A stretch of DNA of 64,000 nucleotides from Spirochaetota bacterium (GCA_963664815.2 CAXXHB010000003.1:3392001-3456000), one strand, 5' to 3'. Shown: positions 1-7,981, numbered from the stretch's first letter. Notes: a model not told the origin generated them from the letters alone. Numbers and translations are program-made.

Positions 1-259
1 GCATATATGTTATAATCAGCACAAAAAAAATTATTAATACAAATACTCTTTTCACCACATAATCCATCTGGAATTATTTTATCGGTTTCCCCTTTTACCC
101 TATAACTCTTAGAAATATACATATAAAACTGACTGCCATTGGAAATAAGGGAAAATAAATAATCGATTCTATTGTCTAATATAAGATTTACTGTTTTAAA
201 ATCCAATAAATATTCACTCTTTTTATCTCTGCCGCTGTTAAAAAAATTTCAGACTAAAC

Positions 260-287
260 GTAACACTTTATCTCCATTCCGGTGTTT
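260..287 (+). promoter_or_regulatory. Candidate ECF-type promoter (GTAAC-N17-GTGTTT)
   Basis: AAC-containing -35 and GT-containing -10 ending about 30 bp before the ATG at 317; single instance only. Confidence 0.3.
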
Positions 288-316
288 AACTTTTATAACA
301 CAACGGAGGAAACATA

Positions 317-973
317 ATGAAAGCTAAAACAATTCTTGCGACAATTGCAGCGCTCTTTCTGGTCACAGGTGCAATGGCGGAAGATACAAAAACCGAAGCA
401 AAGGCAGAAAAAAAAGACAATCCCCCTAAAACTCTTTTAGACTCAAAGAATGCATCTTTCTCCGGTTACGGGGGTGTCTATACAAAGTATGCGAAAATCG
501 GAGATGCAAACAGTTGTCTTGTTGGCGGAAGAGGTGGTCTTATCATAAATGACACAGTTGTCCTGGGACTTGCCGGCATGGGTCTTACATATCCCACAGA
601 CAGGGAGAAGATTTCCGGGAGTGATTACAACGGTCTGTTTAATAAGATCGGATTCGGATACGGAGGTTTTCTCATGGAGTATTATCTGAATCCGAAAGAT
701 TTAATAGTATTTTCCGCAGGAACACTTATTGGCGCCGGAGGTCTTTCGTTTTACAAACATTCCGATGATGACAACTCAGGTAAGGACAACAACAGCGACA
801 CATTTTTTGTGCTTGAGCCTGAAGTAAATGTATTTGTCAACGTCACGCGTTTCTGCCGTATCGGTATAGGAGCCTCATACAGATATATTTCAGGTATAAA
901 TACTGGTGAATTCGATGACAAAGATTTCCGTGGACCTTCTGCTTCGATAATGGCACAATTCGGATGGTTCTGA
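317..973 (+). CDS. Outer-membrane beta-barrel protein, paralog of the C-terminal domain of 2490..4130
   Basis: Signal peptide (AMA|E), Gly/aromatic-rich alternating strands, C-terminal Phe (QFGWF), GGAGG RBS. Confidence 0.8.
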   Translation: MKAKTILATIAALFLVTGAMAEDTKTEAKAEKKDNPPKTLLDSKNASFSGYGGVYTKYAKIGDANSCLVGGRGGLIINDTVVLGLAGMGLTYPTDREKISGSDYNGLFNKIGFGYGGFLMEYYLNPKDLIVFSAGTLIGAGGLSFYKHSDDDNSGKDNNSDTFFVLEPEVNVFVNVTRFCRIGIGASYRYISGINTGEFDDKDFRGPSASIMAQFGWF

Positions 974-1045
974 GAATTACTGAAAATTTAATAATTGTAT
1001 TTTACAGATGCATATTTCAGAATATTATTGTTAAATTAAAAATAT

Positions 1046-1083
1046 TTTTACACTCCATTACCTGCCTGTAATGGAGTGTAAAA
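1046..1083. terminator. Perfect 16-bp stem hairpin between the barrel gene and the sigma gene
   Basis: ttttacactccattac-ctgcct-gtaatggagtgtaaaa; no immediate U-tract on +. Confidence 0.5.
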
Positions 1084-1096
1084 TCAGGAATTTTTT

Positions 1097-1588
1097 ATGA
1101 ATATAAACGTGGAAGAGTTGTATAAAAAATATGGTCCGATGGTACTGCGGCGATGCAGGTTTCTGCTCAAGGATGAGGAGAAATCACTTGATGCCATGCA
1201 GGATGTTTTTGTAAACCTTATTTTAAACTCTGAAAAAATTGAGGATACTTATCCGTCTAGTCTTCTTTACAGGATAGCCACGAATATCTGCCTGAATATT
1301 ATAAGAAGCGAAAAGAGACACCCGGTGACAACTGATGATGAATTATTTAACTATATTGCAGATTACAGGGATCCGTCAGAGGAGATTGCGGCGAATGACC
1401 TTCTTGATTTAATATTTAACGGTGAGAAACCGACTACAAGGGAAATTGCAATTATGCTTTATATTGACCGAATGACACTAGAACAGACAGCCTTTCAATC
1501 CGGGCTATCTGTTTCAGGTGTAAGAAAACGGATGAGAGTCCTTAAAGAAAAAGTTTCATTTTTGAAGGAGGAGATTTATGAAAATTAA
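1097..1588 (+). CDS. ECF RNA polymerase sigma factor
   Basis: Region 2 motifs (DAMQDVF, LYRIATNICLN) and region 4 HTH (TLEQTA..SVSGVRKR); 163 aa. Confidence 0.93.
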   Translation: MNINVEELYKKYGPMVLRRCRFLLKDEEKSLDAMQDVFVNLILNSEKIEDTYPSSLLYRIATNICLNIIRSEKRHPVTTDDELFNYIADYRDPSEEIAANDLLDLIFNGEKPTTREIAIMLYIDRMTLEQTAFQSGLSVSGVRKRMRVLKEKVSFLKEEIYEN

Positions 1589-2474
1589 TCAGATACCGGA
1601 ATTATACCTGGAACAATATCTCCTCGGGGAACTGCCGGAAAATCTCAGCAAAGAGCTTGATGAACTTATACTGAAGAATCCCCTGCTGAAAAAGCGGATC
1701 AGCGAACTGAAAAAATCCAATGAAGACATTCTGTCAGCCTATACGGTTGAATCAATGATGCCATTAATATCTGAAAAATCCGGACTCAGGCGTACAACAC
1801 AATCAGATACCGGTAATGAATTCAAACGGCAGAGTGACGGGAATAAATCATCACACGGAATTGCAGCTGCTTTCACCGGATCAGTAAAAAAGATTGCTGA
1901 CGTAATAAGTTTAATATCATCCAGGCGCTACGCCCTGTCAATAGCCTCCGCAGCAGCCCTGCTTATTATAATTGTTTTTATGACCCCCGGGATAAAGAAT
2001 ACATTCAACACCGGTGCAGTCATTGATAATGATGTAAGAATAAAAGGACTTGATTCAAAACTTCTTCTTTATCGCGTTAAGGGAAAAAATATTGAAGAAC
2101 TGAAAAATTTTGATACTGCCTGCAAAGGGGATGTTATACAGCTGGGATATATCGCCACAGGGGATTACAGGTTTGGAATAATCATTTCTATTGACGGCCG
2201 CGGGGTTGTTACAAGACATCTCCCTGACGACATGAAAACCGGCGCTCAGCTTGTTAAAAACAAAAGAACACTCCTTAACAGATCCTATGAGCTTGACGAT
2301 TCCCCTTCGTTTGAAAAATTCATCATGATACTTTCAACTGATCCGATAAATATATCCGAAGTGACAGAAAAAGCAAAAAAACTTGCAATAAACAGTACAA
2401 ATGCAGTAAATGGACTTATTGAATCAGGAAAAAATTCCGTTGAATATTCAATTATAATAAAGAAAACGGAATAA
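1578..2474 (+). CDS. Putative anti-sigma factor: N-terminal helical sigma-binding-like region, one TM helix, extracytoplasmic DUF4384-like domain
   Basis: Overlaps the sigma stop; LEQYLLGELP N-terminus; TM ALSIASAAALLIIIVF; GDVIQLGY..SIDGRGVVT..SYELDDSPSFE. Confidence 0.75.
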   Translation: MKINQIPELYLEQYLLGELPENLSKELDELILKNPLLKKRISELKKSNEDILSAYTVESMMPLISEKSGLRRTTQSDTGNEFKRQSDGNKSSHGIAAAFTGSVKKIADVISLISSRRYALSIASAAALLIIIVFMTPGIKNTFNTGAVIDNDVRIKGLDSKLLLYRVKGKNIEELKNFDTACKGDVIQLGYIATGDYRFGIIISIDGRGVVTRHLPDDMKTGAQLVKNKRTLLNRSYELDDSPSFEKFIMILSTDPINISEVTEKAKKLAINSTNAVNGLIESGKNSVEYSIIIKKTE

Positions 2475-2489
2475 CGGAGATCAGGCAAA

Positions 2490-4130
2490 ATGTCAAAGAT
2501 AAACCGCATAGCATTCACACTGCTTTTTTTCGCAATAATGCCCTGCATGATAAAACCGGCTGAAGCAAAAAATATCCGCAGATTCGCCGTCATAGTCGGG
2601 GCAAATAACGGAGGACCTGACAGAGTCAGGTTACGTTATGCGGTTTCAGATGCGGATACCATGATGAACGTATTGAAAAGCATAGGGGGGGTTTCAGACA
2701 GCGACGGGCTGCTGCTGATTGATCCGGACAGACGTAATTTCATATCCGCCATGAGCAGGATAAAAAGTGAGATAAGCGAATTAAGACAGAAGAGCGAACG
2801 GATTGAATTTATATTTTATTATTCAGGGCACTCGGATGATGAGGCCATACTGCTTGGCAGGGAAAAGATTTATTACAAGGAACTGAAAGACGGGATAAGA
2901 GGAATTCCCGCCGATGTCCGCATTGCCATACTTGACTCCTGTTCATCAGGGGCTTTTACACGTATTAAAGGGGGAACATTCAAACCGCCCTTCATTCTTG
3001 ACTCTTCATTCAACATGAAGGGTGACGCCTTTATGACATCGAGTTCGTCCAATGAAGCTTCACAGGAATCAGACATGATTAAGGGTTCCTTTTTCACCTA
3101 TTATCTTGTAACTGGATTACGCGGCGCCGCTGATATGATACAGGATGGCCGTATAACATTAAATGAAGCTTACCAGTACGCATACAACGAAACACTCACA
3201 AGAACAGAAAAAACAATGGGAGGGGCGCAGCACCCCAACTATGATATACAGATGACAGGGACAGGGGATGTGGTCATAACAGACTTTAAACGCAATACAT
3301 CCGCTGTTCTGCTTGAAAAGAATATTGTCGGAAAGGTTTTCATACGTAACAGCGACAATATACTTATTGCCGAACTTCAGAAATCCTACGGAAGAGAGAT
3401 GGAAGTTGCGCTACCAGAAGGGAAGTACATCGTATTAAACCAGTCTGAAAACGGTCTCTTTGAAAGCAAAATTAATCTTGCAACAGGCGCCCAGTTCCTG
3501 CTTTCCCAGAATAATATGAATAAACAGGGATCCGAAGAAACCGTAACCCGCGGTAAAGCCAAACCTGAGGAAAAGCAGAAAAAGCAGGTTATACTCAACC
3601 CCGATAAAATTGAACATGGAGGCTACCTTGCTGTTGTGGATCAGCTTTCAAGAATCAACGGAAATTTTGCCAATCTGACCGGCGGAAAAATAACCTGGAT
3701 TATAAATCACTCACTATCACTCGGAGCAGAAGGTTACGGTCTTACCTACCCCACTGATCGTGAAAAATTTACAGGAAAGACTTATGACGGGACGGATAAA
3801 CGGATTAACTTCGGTTTTGGAGGGGGTGTCATAGAATACTTTTTCTGGCCGGATAGTATTATTACGCTCTCCCCCGGTATTATGGCGGGGGGAGGAGGTG
3901 TTGAATGGTATAATCCTGAAATAGAAACCGGGGATGAAAATAAATCTGCAACAGACTCTTTTTTTGTTTTAATGCCTGAATTAAACGTATATCTTAATGT
4001 TACAGAATATATAAGAATCGGTGCAGGTGTTTCATACAGATATGTTAAAGGAATTGACCAGGTTGAGTTTTCAGACAAAGATGTTAATGGATTCTCATTT
4101 TCATTGATAGTAGCGGCAGGATTCTTTTAA
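2490..4130 (+). CDS. Exported caspase-family (peptidase C14) protease fused to a C-terminal outer-membrane beta-barrel
   Basis: Signal peptide; RFAVIVGAN, LRYAVSDA, YYSGH114, ILDSC151 dyad, SFFTYYLVTGLRGAAD, QHP; barrel at about aa 367-546 ending in Phe. Confidence 0.9.
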   Translation: MSKINRIAFTLLFFAIMPCMIKPAEAKNIRRFAVIVGANNGGPDRVRLRYAVSDADTMMNVLKSIGGVSDSDGLLLIDPDRRNFISAMSRIKSEISELRQKSERIEFIFYYSGHSDDEAILLGREKIYYKELKDGIRGIPADVRIAILDSCSSGAFTRIKGGTFKPPFILDSSFNMKGDAFMTSSSSNEASQESDMIKGSFFTYYLVTGLRGAADMIQDGRITLNEAYQYAYNETLTRTEKTMGGAQHPNYDIQMTGTGDVVITDFKRNTSAVLLEKNIVGKVFIRNSDNILIAELQKSYGREMEVALPEGKYIVLNQSENGLFESKINLATGAQFLLSQNNMNKQGSEETVTRGKAKPEEKQKKQVILNPDKIEHGGYLAVVDQLSRINGNFANLTGGKITWIINHSLSLGAEGYGLTYPTDREKFTGKTYDGTDKRINFGFGGGVIEYFFWPDSIITLSPGIMAGGGGVEWYNPEIETGDENKSATDSFFVLMPELNVYLNVTEYIRIGAGVSYRYVKGIDQVEFSDKDVNGFSFSLIVAAGFF

Positions 4131-4246
4131 TTCTGCCGGGATACCAAAGACTGCGATGCTGAATATTAACCGGTTAATTTATGGATAAGCTGGGATATCT
4201 TTCGTGTTATCCTTACGATATAACAACTCTTCGCGCTTACTGTTTT

Positions 4247-4891
4247 CTATTTTAAACTCTCTATCACATCAAGAAATGTATTTATCGGGTGAGCCCCGAG
4301 CAGTTCATACTTTTCATTGATGATGATTTTCGGAACACCTGTCACATTATACTTCTGTGCAAGGGGAACAAAATTGTTGGAATCTATCATATCCCCCTTT
4401 ATTCTGCTGTTCTCCATAGCAAGCCTGTGTGCAGCCGAAACAGCTGCCGGACAATGCGGACAGCCGAGTCCAACAAAAACCTGAATATGCACGTCCTTGT
4501 CAATTTTCTTTATGCGGGAAAGAACATCAGGCGGAAGTTCTTCTTTTTTTCCTGACATTTCAAGTATTGACCCAAGAAAAGAGTTTATCTCGTAACCACC
4601 TGGAAGCCCGTAAAACTTTACGCCATGGTCAGCATCGTTTTTATCAAGTAAAACTATGGCGGGAATTCTCTCCACGCCATATTTTTCAGCCATTTCCTTA
4701 TCAGTTACAAAATTTAACACCTTGACTGAGAGTTTATCGCTCAGCGACGCAATCTCCTCGGCAAAATACCGCGTCTCCCTGCACATGGGGCACTCAATCT
4801 CCTGAGTGAAATTTATTATTTTCACCTCATCGTTCATATTTTTAAGTATTTCCTTAAGCTGATTCTGAACTTTTATATCAAACAGTGCCAT
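4247..4891 (-). CDS. Protein disulfide oxidoreductase (two thioredoxin folds; AhpF N-terminal domain-like)
   Basis: CPMC and CPHC motifs, FYGLPGGYE, VTGVP cis-Pro loop. Confidence 0.88.
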   Translation of the reverse strand: MALFDIKVQNQLKEILKNMNDEVKIINFTQEIECPMCRETRYFAEEIASLSDKLSVKVLNFVTDKEMAEKYGVERIPAIVLLDKNDADHGVKFYGLPGGYEINSFLGSILEMSGKKEELPPDVLSRIKKIDKDVHIQVFVGLGCPHCPAAVSAAHRLAMENSRIKGDMIDSNNFVPLAQKYNVTGVPKIIINEKYELLGAHPINTFLDVIESLK

Positions 4892-4912
4892 AGTCTCACC
4901 TCTTTAATCTGA

Positions 4913-5893
4913 TTAATTTCTCTTTAAAATATATTCACATGCGGAAAGTGCAGCTTTCGCCCCTTCACCCCCTGCAATAATTATCTGCTTAAACGGTACA
5001 GATGTAACGTCACCTGCCGCAAAAATCCCCTCACGGTTAGTAGCACACCTGCTGTCCACGATGATCTCGCACGATGAGTTCATCTCCACTACCCCGCGGG
5101 CAAACCCGCTGTTAGGATCAAGACCTATTTCAACGAATAATCCGTCGGCAGAAATTTTAGATGTTTCACCTGATTCCACATTCTCTATTATCACTTCGCG
5201 AACCTTATCCTCGCCCGTAATTTCTATCACACGGCTTTTGTAAATCATACTGACATTTTGAAAGCCTTCCAGTTTATCAAGGAGAATTTTATCTGCAGTA
5301 AGCTCTTCAAGAAGCTGAACCACTACAACCTCTTCTGCCACAGAGGCAAGATCAATTGCAGACTCTACCCCTGAATTACCACCCCCCGCTACAACAACCT
5401 TTTTACCGGCAAATAACGGAGCATCACAGGTTGTACAGTAGGCAACTCCTCTCCCGGTTAGCCGCTGCTCTCCGGGGATTCCGAGCTTCTTCCATGTTTT
5501 CCCCGAAGCAATTATCAGCGTTTTTGACTGTATTACCCTGCCGTCATCAAGAGTGACTTTTTTTACTTCACTATCCTCAATCGATAAAACACCCTGCCCC
5601 TCTTCGTATCCTATGCTGAACTGTAAAACCTGTTCCCTGAACCTGTCAACAAGATCAACACCATTTATATACTTATACCCGAGATAGTTCTCAATTGATG
5701 ATGTTTCAGCCACCTGCCCTCCGATACTCCTTATAATGATCGCTGTCTCTGCACCCTTCCTCATGCAGTAGACAGCTGCTGTCATCCCTGCCGGGCCTCC
5801 GCCAATAATCAGCACATCGTATATTTTCCCCGTGTCAATCGGTGCAAAATTCTTTTCACTGATAAAAGAAACTGTACTTAAATTAAAATCCAT
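4913..5893 (-). CDS. Thioredoxin reductase / AhpF C-terminal-like FAD-dependent disulfide reductase
   Basis: GGGPAG, GVAYCTTCD, GGGNSG, FAAGDV..KQIIIAGGEG. Confidence 0.9.
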   Translation of the reverse strand: MDFNLSTVSFISEKNFAPIDTGKIYDVLIIGGGPAGMTAAVYCMRKGAETAIIIRSIGGQVAETSSIENYLGYKYINGVDLVDRFREQVLQFSIGYEEGQGVLSIEDSEVKKVTLDDGRVIQSKTLIIASGKTWKKLGIPGEQRLTGRGVAYCTTCDAPLFAGKKVVVAGGGNSGVESAIDLASVAEEVVVVQLLEELTADKILLDKLEGFQNVSMIYKSRVIEITGEDKVREVIIENVESGETSKISADGLFVEIGLDPNSGFARGVVEMNSSCEIIVDSRCATNREGIFAAGDVTSVPFKQIIIAGGEGAKAALSACEYILKRN

Positions 5894-7607: not shown

Positions 7608-7981
7608 TTAATACATCCTGAAATTTAATTCCTCAACTTTGCAAAAAAAAGATTTTATTCTCACCGTTGTCATGTTCAGTACAGAAGTTTTACATTTTTG
7701 TTTAGACTAAAAAATATGTCCAGAAAATAATACATTCTTTATTATTAAGACTCCGCAATCTAATCATTAATACAACATATACACATATTTTAATCAATAA
7801 ATATTTAACAAAAAACGTAACTTTTCATGATTAAACATCTCTTGACTTTTCAGATATATTTTTTGAATACTTAGATTATATGTAATAACTTATAATCAGC
7901 ATTATTATTAAATGTAAGTAACTATGCTCTGATTAAATTTGTTTCACTATGTATAAATGTTTTTTAAAAGAGGAGATATTT

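Follow-up and report, generated by a model that had tools for sequence, protein, structure and literature searches.

Single-pass anti-sigma factors can be removed by two-step regulated intramembrane proteolysis, as in the RpoE/RseA/DegS/RseP pathway, in which the control of extracytoplasmic function (ECF) sigma factors is exerted across the cell envelope. To our knowledge, such control by regulated proteolysis is well understood for few site-1 proteases, and among the bacterial caspase homologues, which are abundant, very few have a known substrate or role. In this study, we investigated four genes at positions 317 to 4,130 of a 64,000-nucleotide stretch of DNA from a Spirochaetota bacterium (GCA_963664815.2, CAXXHB010000003.1:3392001-3456000), the whole of which is hereafter called the window. 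The genes encode a predicted outer-membrane (OM) barrel, an ECF sigma factor, an anti-sigma-like membrane protein and an exported caspase-barrel fusion (Table 1). We observed that the last three form a triad whose order is kept in distant loci, and that a T-R-x-K-G motif is found both in the anti-sigma-like protein, just outside the membrane, and in the loop behind the catalytic cysteine of the caspase, pointing to the caspase as a candidate site-1 protease of the anti-sigma factor.

Among the described systems, DdvA of Myxococcus xanthus is an anti-sigma factor with a fused periplasmic TPR-CHAT region, which is proposed to be its own site-1 protease (PMC11506125, PMC6061681). As that system is described in PMC11506125, its likeness to our locus lies in an ECF sigma factor held by a single-pass anti-sigma factor, in a periplasmic caspase-fold His-Cys module near a flexible juxtamembrane linker, and in the proposed role of this module as site-1 protease ahead of RseP. 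However, the candidate protease here is a separate C14 metacaspase-like protein that would be tethered to the OM by a barrel, whereas DdvA has a CHAT domain fused to the anti-sigma factor; anti-sigma factor and caspase are separate genes here and in all examined loci. Likewise, the anti-sigma-like protein here harbors a small DUF4384-like sandwich and no zinc motif in the place of TPR-CHAT, and the candidate regulon consists of envelope proteins and not of CBASS or CRISPR. In the type III-E craspase, Csx29 (TPR-CHAT) cleaves Csx30, which binds RpoE with Csx31, and DUF4384 is reported both as a fusion partner of protease domains and as the C-terminal domain of some Csx30 proteins (bioRxiv 10.1101/2022.08.17.504292). 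A caspase-fold protease that cuts the linker of a sigma-binding protein is known for craspase as described in that preprint and is proposed here, and the DUF4384 of some Csx30 proteins recurs in 13 of 57 homologues of our anti-sigma-like protein. In contrast, craspase is cytoplasmic, RNA-guided, CRISPR-linked and of the CHAT type, while the protease here belongs to C14 and is found with no cas genes; PADLOC gave 0 matches for the four cassette proteins, so that neither CRISPR nor another known defence system is linked to them, in agreement with the independence from CRISPR that the initial annotation had claimed.

The likeness to RpoE/RseA consists of a single-pass anti-sigma factor whose removal would take two proteolytic steps, a genome that encodes an M50 protease of the RseP type, and a probably autoregulated ECF promoter; unlike DegS, an inner-membrane serine protease encoded elsewhere, the candidate site-1 protease here is an operon-encoded cysteine protease with a predicted OM anchor. 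The FecI/FecR/FecA system also combines an ECF sigma factor, a single-pass anti-sigma factor and an OM partner, and a TonB-receptor-like protein is a candidate regulon member of our locus. However, the anti-sigma-like protein here has no FecR-family match, the operon supplies as OM partner a caspase with an 8-strand barrel, and the TonB-receptor-like protein displays CarbopepD_reg and Plug only and no signalling-domain match. With reference to gene neighbourhood, four of the five metacaspases of M. xanthus have been placed in operons with sigma-70-family factors, and such operons were also listed for Anaeromyxobacter, Haliangium, Sorangium, Ralstonia and Fibrobacter (Asplund-Samuelsson et al. 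2012, PMC3501461). The myxobacterial triads mentioned in the initial annotation match this report as regards the metacaspase-sigma operons, the co-occurrence of which is what the paper reports. The portion of PMC3501461 that deals with these operons gives co-occurrence alone: it identifies no anti-sigma factor, promoter or motif, proposes neither topology nor mechanism, and has no spirochaetes among the bacteria in which such operons were seen. The likeness to our triad is one of gene neighbourhood as described there.

The window corresponds to G000:C3:3392001-3456000 of a 3-contig, 5.2-Mb genome, and the nearest relatives of its proteins come from metagenome-assembled genomes (MAGs) named Spirochaetota or Leptospirales. 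The list of open reading frames (ORFs) shows the four co-oriented genes and the overlap of sigma and anti-sigma genes that had been annotated initially, with 11 nt common to the two ORFs and 15 nt from the anti-sigma stop to the caspase start. Sixteen genome loci were found with the caspase as anchor, and in all 15 that were scored (L011 lacks upstream DNA) the sigma gene followed by the anti-sigma gene lies directly 5' of the caspase gene, an order that holds down to 43% caspase and 28% anti-sigma identity. We also conducted a metagenome survey anchored on the anti-sigma alignment, in which 593 pattern matches on metagenome contigs yielded 472 that encode a relative; the survey used the best 80 of these. 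Among these loci, the caspase is next after the anti-sigma gene in 64 of the 65 with at least 300 nt downstream, the remaining one (L054) having no ORF there, and a sigma gene is found 5' of the anti-sigma gene in 67 of the 67 with at least 300 nt upstream. The co-occurrence of the triad in other genomes, as anticipated in the initial annotation, was thus recovered by both neighbourhood surveys.

The anti-sigma family is extensive, with 6,537 representatives at E<=0.001, of which 2,235 remain at E<=1e-30 (50%-identity representatives), and the best 150 of them are all 254-327 aa long. Within the phylum of the window its distribution is patchy (40 of 301 sampled genomes, 30 of 126 genera), and the source names of the homologues include Aminicenantes, Vicinamibacterales and proteobacterial MAGs. 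The C-terminus of the caspase varies: in the 67 metagenome loci with a caspase ORF, 14 C-termini are barrel-like, 21 are of another kind and 32 are ended by the contig, and non-barrel C-termini after the anti-sigma gene also occur in L012, L014, L015 and L019.

Judging from its profile matches, the second gene product is an ECF (group 4) sigma-70 factor, as annotated at first. Residues 5-153 of its 163 match TIGR02937 (sigma70-ECF) with 54.4 bits (cut-off 42.9), and it also matches Sigma70_r2 with 38.3 bits (cut-off 24), together with a match to Sigma70_r4_2 that stays under its cut-off (15.7 bits against 25.7). The fourth gene product is, on the same type of evidence, a Peptidase C14 with a caspase fold and a His-Cys dyad, and appears catalytically intact; it matches PF00656 with 42.1 bits (cut-off 21.4) over residues 30-253. 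The dyad, His114 and Cys151, was described as intact from the beginning, and both residues proved invariant in 64 of 64 aligned homologues (41-76% identical). Among the metagenome-locus caspases, the His motif is kept in 59/59 and the Cys in 54/54, 9 of the 54 reading MDSC or LDAC. Since the dyad is kept without exception, catalysis appears to matter. In comparison with the Candida glabrata metacaspase, D54 takes the place of the Asp in 'CINDA', and D149-S-C151 corresponds to the metacaspase 'DSC'. In metacaspases these Asp positions form the acidic S1 pocket, and D54 and D149 are putative pocket residues here. Orthocaspases have been reported to cleave after basic residues (PMC6426788).

The AlphaFold2 model of the caspase has a mean predicted local distance difference test (pLDDT) score of 79.7 and displays the signal-peptide-like helix and the Phe-ending C-terminal barrel that the initial annotation had described. 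A Foldseek search recovered metacaspase Yca1 (4f6o) at E 2.5e-7, with caspases and MALT1 at weaker E, and for the C-terminus the 8-strand barrel NspA (1p4t) at E 3.8e-6, with a target-length-normalised TM-score of 0.68; OMP_b-brl Pfam families are matched by 3 of the 64 caspase homologues. According to the model, the C-terminus is an 8-strand OM barrel of the OmpX/NspA/OmpA-N type, with predicted membrane insertion. The caspase domain is predicted to face the periplasm, the same compartment as the C-terminal domain of the anti-sigma-like protein. Profile-profile comparison of the middle domain of the caspase with the anti-sigma domain showed no homology (probability 0.7%).

The third gene product is read as a non-zinc class I anti-sigma factor on the basis of position, topology and weak similarity. 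Its AlphaFold2 model (mean pLDDT 82.3) contains the one transmembrane helix and the predicted extracytoplasmic domain that had been annotated. Pfam and NCBIfam scans gave no match of its own for the window protein, while its homologues are more informative: PF14326 (DUF4384) is matched by 13 of the 57 aligned ones at E<=0.01 (best 3.8e-6), and the NCBIfam anti-sigma model NF052375 by the N-termini of 4 of 5 tested, all under the cut-off with E down to 1.2e-9. In structural comparison, residues 3-74 align with all 70 residues of RsiW in the SigW-RsiW complex (5wuq_C), with a Z of 6.2 and a root-mean-square deviation of 5.3, which is modest for a helical domain. Foldseek of the model against the PDB returned nothing at E<=0.001, and comparison of the protein profile with PDB sequences matched nothing relevant. 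A wide structural search with residues 157-298 recovered generic Ig-like sandwiches, including macroglobulin-type domains, at Z 7-9. The zinc motif HxxxCxxC is absent, as residues 1-76 contain no Cys or His, which places the protein outside the ZAS group. The label 'ActD-like protein', given by one source to a 262-aa homologue (P0217), was dropped, as it could refer either to the ActD of M. xanthus or to that of alternative complex III; the papers that our searches returned for the name dealt with complex III only. In four related genomes (G218, G268, G083 and G058), the anti-sigma match is interrupted by one in-frame stop each (TGA or TAA), which may mean a pseudogene or a mistake in the assembly.

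The motif pair is a feature common to the two envelope proteins. In the anti-sigma-like protein the motif, [T/V]-R-x-K-G, is located at the border between the linker of pLDDT<50 and the folded domain, 17-21 residues past the membrane helix. All 57 aligned homologues keep K156 and G157, and at least 90% of them keep R154; of 144 further representatives, 120 have R-x-K-G. The caspase loop has the sequence F-T-[R/Q]-x-K-G-G, in which K160-G161-G162 do not vary among the 64 homologues, and belongs to a segment (residues 153-173) with pLDDT<50. In caspases and metacaspases, the loop after the catalytic Cys is the usual place of autoprocessing. When the two proteins of 57 paired loci were compared, Arg occupies P3 in both proteins in 53 loci and Thr occupies P4 in both in 37. 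The simplest reading of the pair, which we infer from these alignments, is a common recognition site that would be cut after the Lys.

A further analysis dealt with the promoter. The window motif, GTAACA-N17-TGTTTAA, recurs 5' of the barrel gene in L005-L010, and L004 has a variant of it there. In the distant loci L012-L019, which have no barrel gene at that place, it lies directly 5' of the sigma gene. When sought as the pattern GT[AG]AC[AC]-N14-18-G[TGA]GTT within 150 nt of the first gene, it was detected 50-77 nt before that gene in 15 of 16 loci, with a background of 0.011 per 150 nt; in the metagenome loci the pattern occurs within 200 nt of the sigma gene in 32 of 57. The motif has the features of an autoregulatory ECF promoter, including an AAC-containing -35 element and a conserved -10 element, and would be used by this sigma factor. 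Because an ECF-type promoter is conserved before the first operon gene, the four genes probably constitute one cassette and likely a single autoregulated unit, which upholds the initial annotation on this point. A partial repeat at 7799-7828 was rejected as a promoter, as it copies the -35 region without a matching -10 element. Further copies of the motif were noticed before a 158-aa lipoprotein-like gene just 5' of the barrel gene (L007:2868-3483) and before a 293-aa gene directly after the caspase (L019:7784-8697).

Across the 5.2-Mb genome there are five occurrences of the strict motif, one of them 5' of the barrel gene; by our own base-composition estimate, about 2-3 per genome would be expected by chance. 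Another occurrence lies 211 nt 5' of the gene for an orphan caspase paralogue, near which neither a sigma nor an anti-sigma gene is present; this protein retains the FTRIKGG loop, and its C-terminus consists of repeats of about 20 aa ('GF.LSG.SN') and no 8-strand barrel. A third precedes a secreted protein with an FGE-sulfatase domain, which is among the domains most often fused to bacterial metacaspases according to PMC3501461. The TonB-receptor-like OM protein is 42% identical over 724 residues to the gene at L012:1821-4281, which itself sits with the promoter motif immediately 5' of a sigma gene; the presence of the motif at both genes supports its being functional, and the TonB-receptor-like protein is likely a conserved regulon member. 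The fifth match overlaps the start of a TetR-family ORF and may be a chance match.

Taken together, the data suggest the following mechanism. At rest, the cytoplasmic helical domain of the anti-sigma factor would hold the sigma factor, while the caspase, once exported, would be held at the periplasmic side of the OM by its 8-strand barrel, with its protease and beta-sandwich domains in the periplasm opposite the DUF4384-like domain of the anti-sigma factor. An envelope signal would make the caspase active, possibly through autoprocessing at the T-R-I-K-G-G loop, and the caspase would then cut the anti-sigma factor after R-I-K156 in the flexible juxtamembrane linker. The remaining stub would be a substrate for an RseP-type site-2 protease, for which the genome offers a Peptidase_M50 homologue (PF02163, 176 bits, G000:C3:3826259-3827731), and the released sigma factor would transcribe from GTAACA-N17-TGTTTAA promoters its own operon and the genes of the orphan caspase, the TonB-receptor-like protein and the secreted FGE-sulfatase-domain protein. 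Sigma binding, topology, cleavage and its site, the signal and the regulon are the parts of this scheme that we infer.

Site-1 cleavage of the anti-sigma factor by the caspase is the best-supported of the mechanisms considered, and we hold it tentatively, at somewhat less than even confidence. The broader claim, that the triad is a widespread trans-envelope switch in which an OM-anchored metacaspase zymogen senses the state of the OM or periplasm, autoprocesses at T-R-x-K|G-G and cuts the T-R-x-K|G motif in the linker of a DUF4384 anti-sigma factor, thereby starting the RseP-dependent release of the ECF sigma factor, is possible and should be regarded as rather doubtful. The initial annotation had named the caspase as site-1 protease or sensor; of this, the cassette, its synteny, the intact dyad and the predicted periplasmic placement stood, while cleavage or sensing is a proposal. 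The direct hints of cleavage are only the T-R-x-K-G pair and the known DUF4384-protease fusions, and several observations speak against the proposal. A common pentapeptide is not rare by chance (about 0.1 expected, by our own estimate), the K-G residues could be structural instead of marking a cleavage site, and the pairing of I/I versus L/A at P2 may reflect merely common ancestry. The window protein has no match to PF14326 at E<=0.1, and its assignment as an anti-sigma factor draws on position, topology, sub-threshold family matches and a fold match of Z 6.2. In addition, no fused anti-sigma-caspase protein was found among proteins of 530-2000 aa, which is weak evidence. A complex prediction for caspase residues 27-348 and anti-sigma residues 137-298, each with its alignment, scored 0.17 against a mark of 0.32 and was counted neither way.

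Co-transcription with sigma and anti-sigma genes is also typical of regulon outputs, and the synteny would look the same if the caspase were one of them. ECF operons often carry effector genes, and the orphan caspase, with a strict motif and no sigma gene nearby, suggests that caspases of this family can be outputs. The DUF4384-like domain would in that case sense the signal by itself, or a housekeeping protease would cut the anti-sigma factor, and the sigma factor would raise the output of proteins that remodel or defend the envelope, namely the OM-anchored caspase, its orphan paralogue, the barrel, the TonB-receptor-like protein and the FGE-sulfatase-domain protein, among others. The other strict motif matches precede exported proteins, and the kinship of the TonB-receptor-like gene with the motif-bearing gene 5' of the L012 sigma gene agrees with such a regulon. 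Even so, we consider this explanation unlikely, if seriously to be weighed: it does not account for the motif common to the caspase and the anti-sigma linker or for the recurrent DUF4384-protease fusion, and it would not lead one to expect the fixed place of the caspase after the anti-sigma gene in 64 of 65 distant loci while other regulon members move. Binding between the caspase and the anti-sigma periplasmic domain without cleavage of the latter by the former is less probable still. The caspase could be a co-sensor whose conformational change or autoprocessing frees the anti-sigma factor for another protease, or, in reverse, the anti-sigma domain could keep the caspase inactive until a signal arrives. 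Synteny is as tight under this arrangement as under site-1 cleavage by the caspase, the Ig-like sandwich of the anti-sigma periplasmic domain is a fold often used in protein binding, and the caspase has an extra beta-sandwich domain of its own; against it stand the exceptionless dyad and the conserved basic motif in an exposed linker. It is quite improbable that the 298-aa protein is no anti-sigma factor at all but a co-transcribed membrane protein, for example a caspase substrate or receptor outside sigma control. The lack of family matches, of the zinc motif and of relevant hits in the PDB-sequence profile search would suit such a protein. However, its first codons overlap the end of the sigma gene, all 67 loci keep this order, the model places one membrane helix after an N-terminal helical domain of high confidence, and the sub-threshold NF052375 matches of its homologues, the RsiW alignment, and the name 'anti-sigma factor RsiW' given to one homologue by one source all argue for an anti-sigma factor.

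The barrel gene, annotated initially as the OM barrel at the head of the cassette, retained that place. Its product has no Pfam or NCBIfam match, is a predicted 8-strand OM barrel with a signal peptide and a C-terminal Phe, and shares 39% identity with caspase residues 325-546 (E 2e-48), which makes it a free-standing paralogue of the caspase anchor (barrel and linker). Orthologues lie 5' of the sigma gene in L004-L010 and 3' of the caspase in L016. The ECF promoter that precedes it puts the barrel gene at the head of the unit in this lineage, and since among the loci examined free-standing copies are confined to 11 (L004-L010, L016, L024, L026 and L099), it appears to be a lineage-specific accessory. 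The spacer between the barrel and sigma genes contains a sigma-70-like promoter candidate, and TTTACA...TA(G/T)AAT-like strings are present in the same spacers of L005-L007. It also contains a hairpin with a z of -4.74, as well as which 0 of 200 shuffles fold. This hairpin could attenuate transcription running on from the barrel gene, act as a partial terminator or stabilise the sigma mRNA; an Rfam scan of window positions 1-5000 gave no match, the hairpin included. L005 and L006 display hairpin-capable sequences of other sequence at the same place of the spacer. Downstream, on the minus strand and convergent with the caspase gene, 4247-5893 encodes two proteins with no evident link to the cassette, one of 214 aa with a double thioredoxin fold and the other a thioredoxin-reductase-like flavoprotein of 326 aa.

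Table 1. Coordinates of the cassette genes, their protein domains and motifs, and the genes at the other strict promoter matches. Nucleotide positions are those of the window unless a contig is given; residues are those of the protein named.
Feature	Position	Strand	Description
ECF-type promoter, GTAACA (-35) N17 TGTTTAA (-10 region)	260..289	+	28 nt 5' of barrel start
Barrel gene	317-973	+	ORF, 218 aa
Sigma-70-like promoter candidate, TTTACA N16 TATTAT	1001..1028	+	consensus scan, 10/12 positions; consensus match only
16-bp perfect hairpin	1046..1083	+	13 nt 5' of sigma start codon; -21.6 kcal/mol
ECF sigma gene	1097-1588	+	ORF, 163 aa
Anti-sigma-like gene	1578-2474	+	ORF, 298 aa
Predicted cytoplasmic 4-helix domain	anti-sigma residues 1-76		helices 8-76, pLDDT about 95 (model)
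Membrane helix	anti-sigma residues about 118-136		single (model)
Disordered juxtamembrane linker	anti-sigma residues 137-154		pLDDT<50 in model
V153-R154-I155-K156-G157 codons	2034..2048	+	[T/V]-R-x-K-G, candidate site-1 cleavage site
Predicted periplasmic beta-sandwich, probably a divergent DUF4384	anti-sigma residues 158-298		model; beta-rich 161-297
Caspase gene	2490-4130	+	ORF, 546 aa
Hydrophobic signal-peptide-like helix	caspase residues 2-20		then AEA/K (model)
Caspase domain	caspase residues 29-256		model
Catalytic dyad span	2829..2942	+	His114 codon 2829-2831, Cys151 codon 2940-2942
T157-R158-I159-K160-G161-G162 codons	2958..2975	+	loop after Cys151, candidate autoprocessing site
Beta-sandwich domain	caspase residues 262-346		model
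Disordered linker	caspase residues 350-364		model
C-terminal 8-strand barrel	3615..4127	+	caspase residues 376-546; eight long strands 376-545, terminal Phe
Orphan caspase paralogue	G000:C3:1459592-1461949 (L020:5593-7710)	-	705 aa; 71% identical over residues 1-365
Secreted FGE-sulfatase-domain protein	G000:C3:3608934-3609816 (L021:2935-3759)	-	274 aa; strict motif 29 nt 5'
TonB-receptor-like OM protein (CarbopepD_reg + Plug)	G000:C3:3082567-3085027 (L022:1568-4006)	-	strict motif at start
TetR-family ORF	G000:C2:749476-750257 (L023:991-1758)		motif overlapping start; fifth strict match

Our literature search found no paper on a module of C14 caspase, DUF4384 anti-sigma factor and ECF sigma factor, nor on the motif or the promoter. 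The main text of the ECF classification PMC7826278 contains no caspase, C14 or DUF4384, and one of its supplements no caspase, Peptidase_C14, PF00656 or C14; its other supplements may describe such a group. What was already known is the metacaspase-sigma operon, reported in 2012 without a mechanism, and to this our study adds the promoter, the anti-sigma factor, the motif pair and the conserved order. For DdvA, the fused CHAT domain has been put forward as a caspase-fold site-1 protease, and for the cytoplasmic craspase a protease of this kind has been demonstrated; the module discussed here is a simpler three-protein system in which the C14 protease is intact and both the cleavage motif and the target promoter have a defined candidate. 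With 2,235 anti-sigma representatives at E<=1e-30, it is very common in uncultured bacteria, and the question of what the periplasmic caspases of bacteria cleave becomes directly testable. If the proposed mechanism is true, DUF4384 would be a caspase-recognition module in common with some Csx30 substrates of craspase, and the ancestral job of bacterial C14 caspases would be transcriptional signalling and not cell death.

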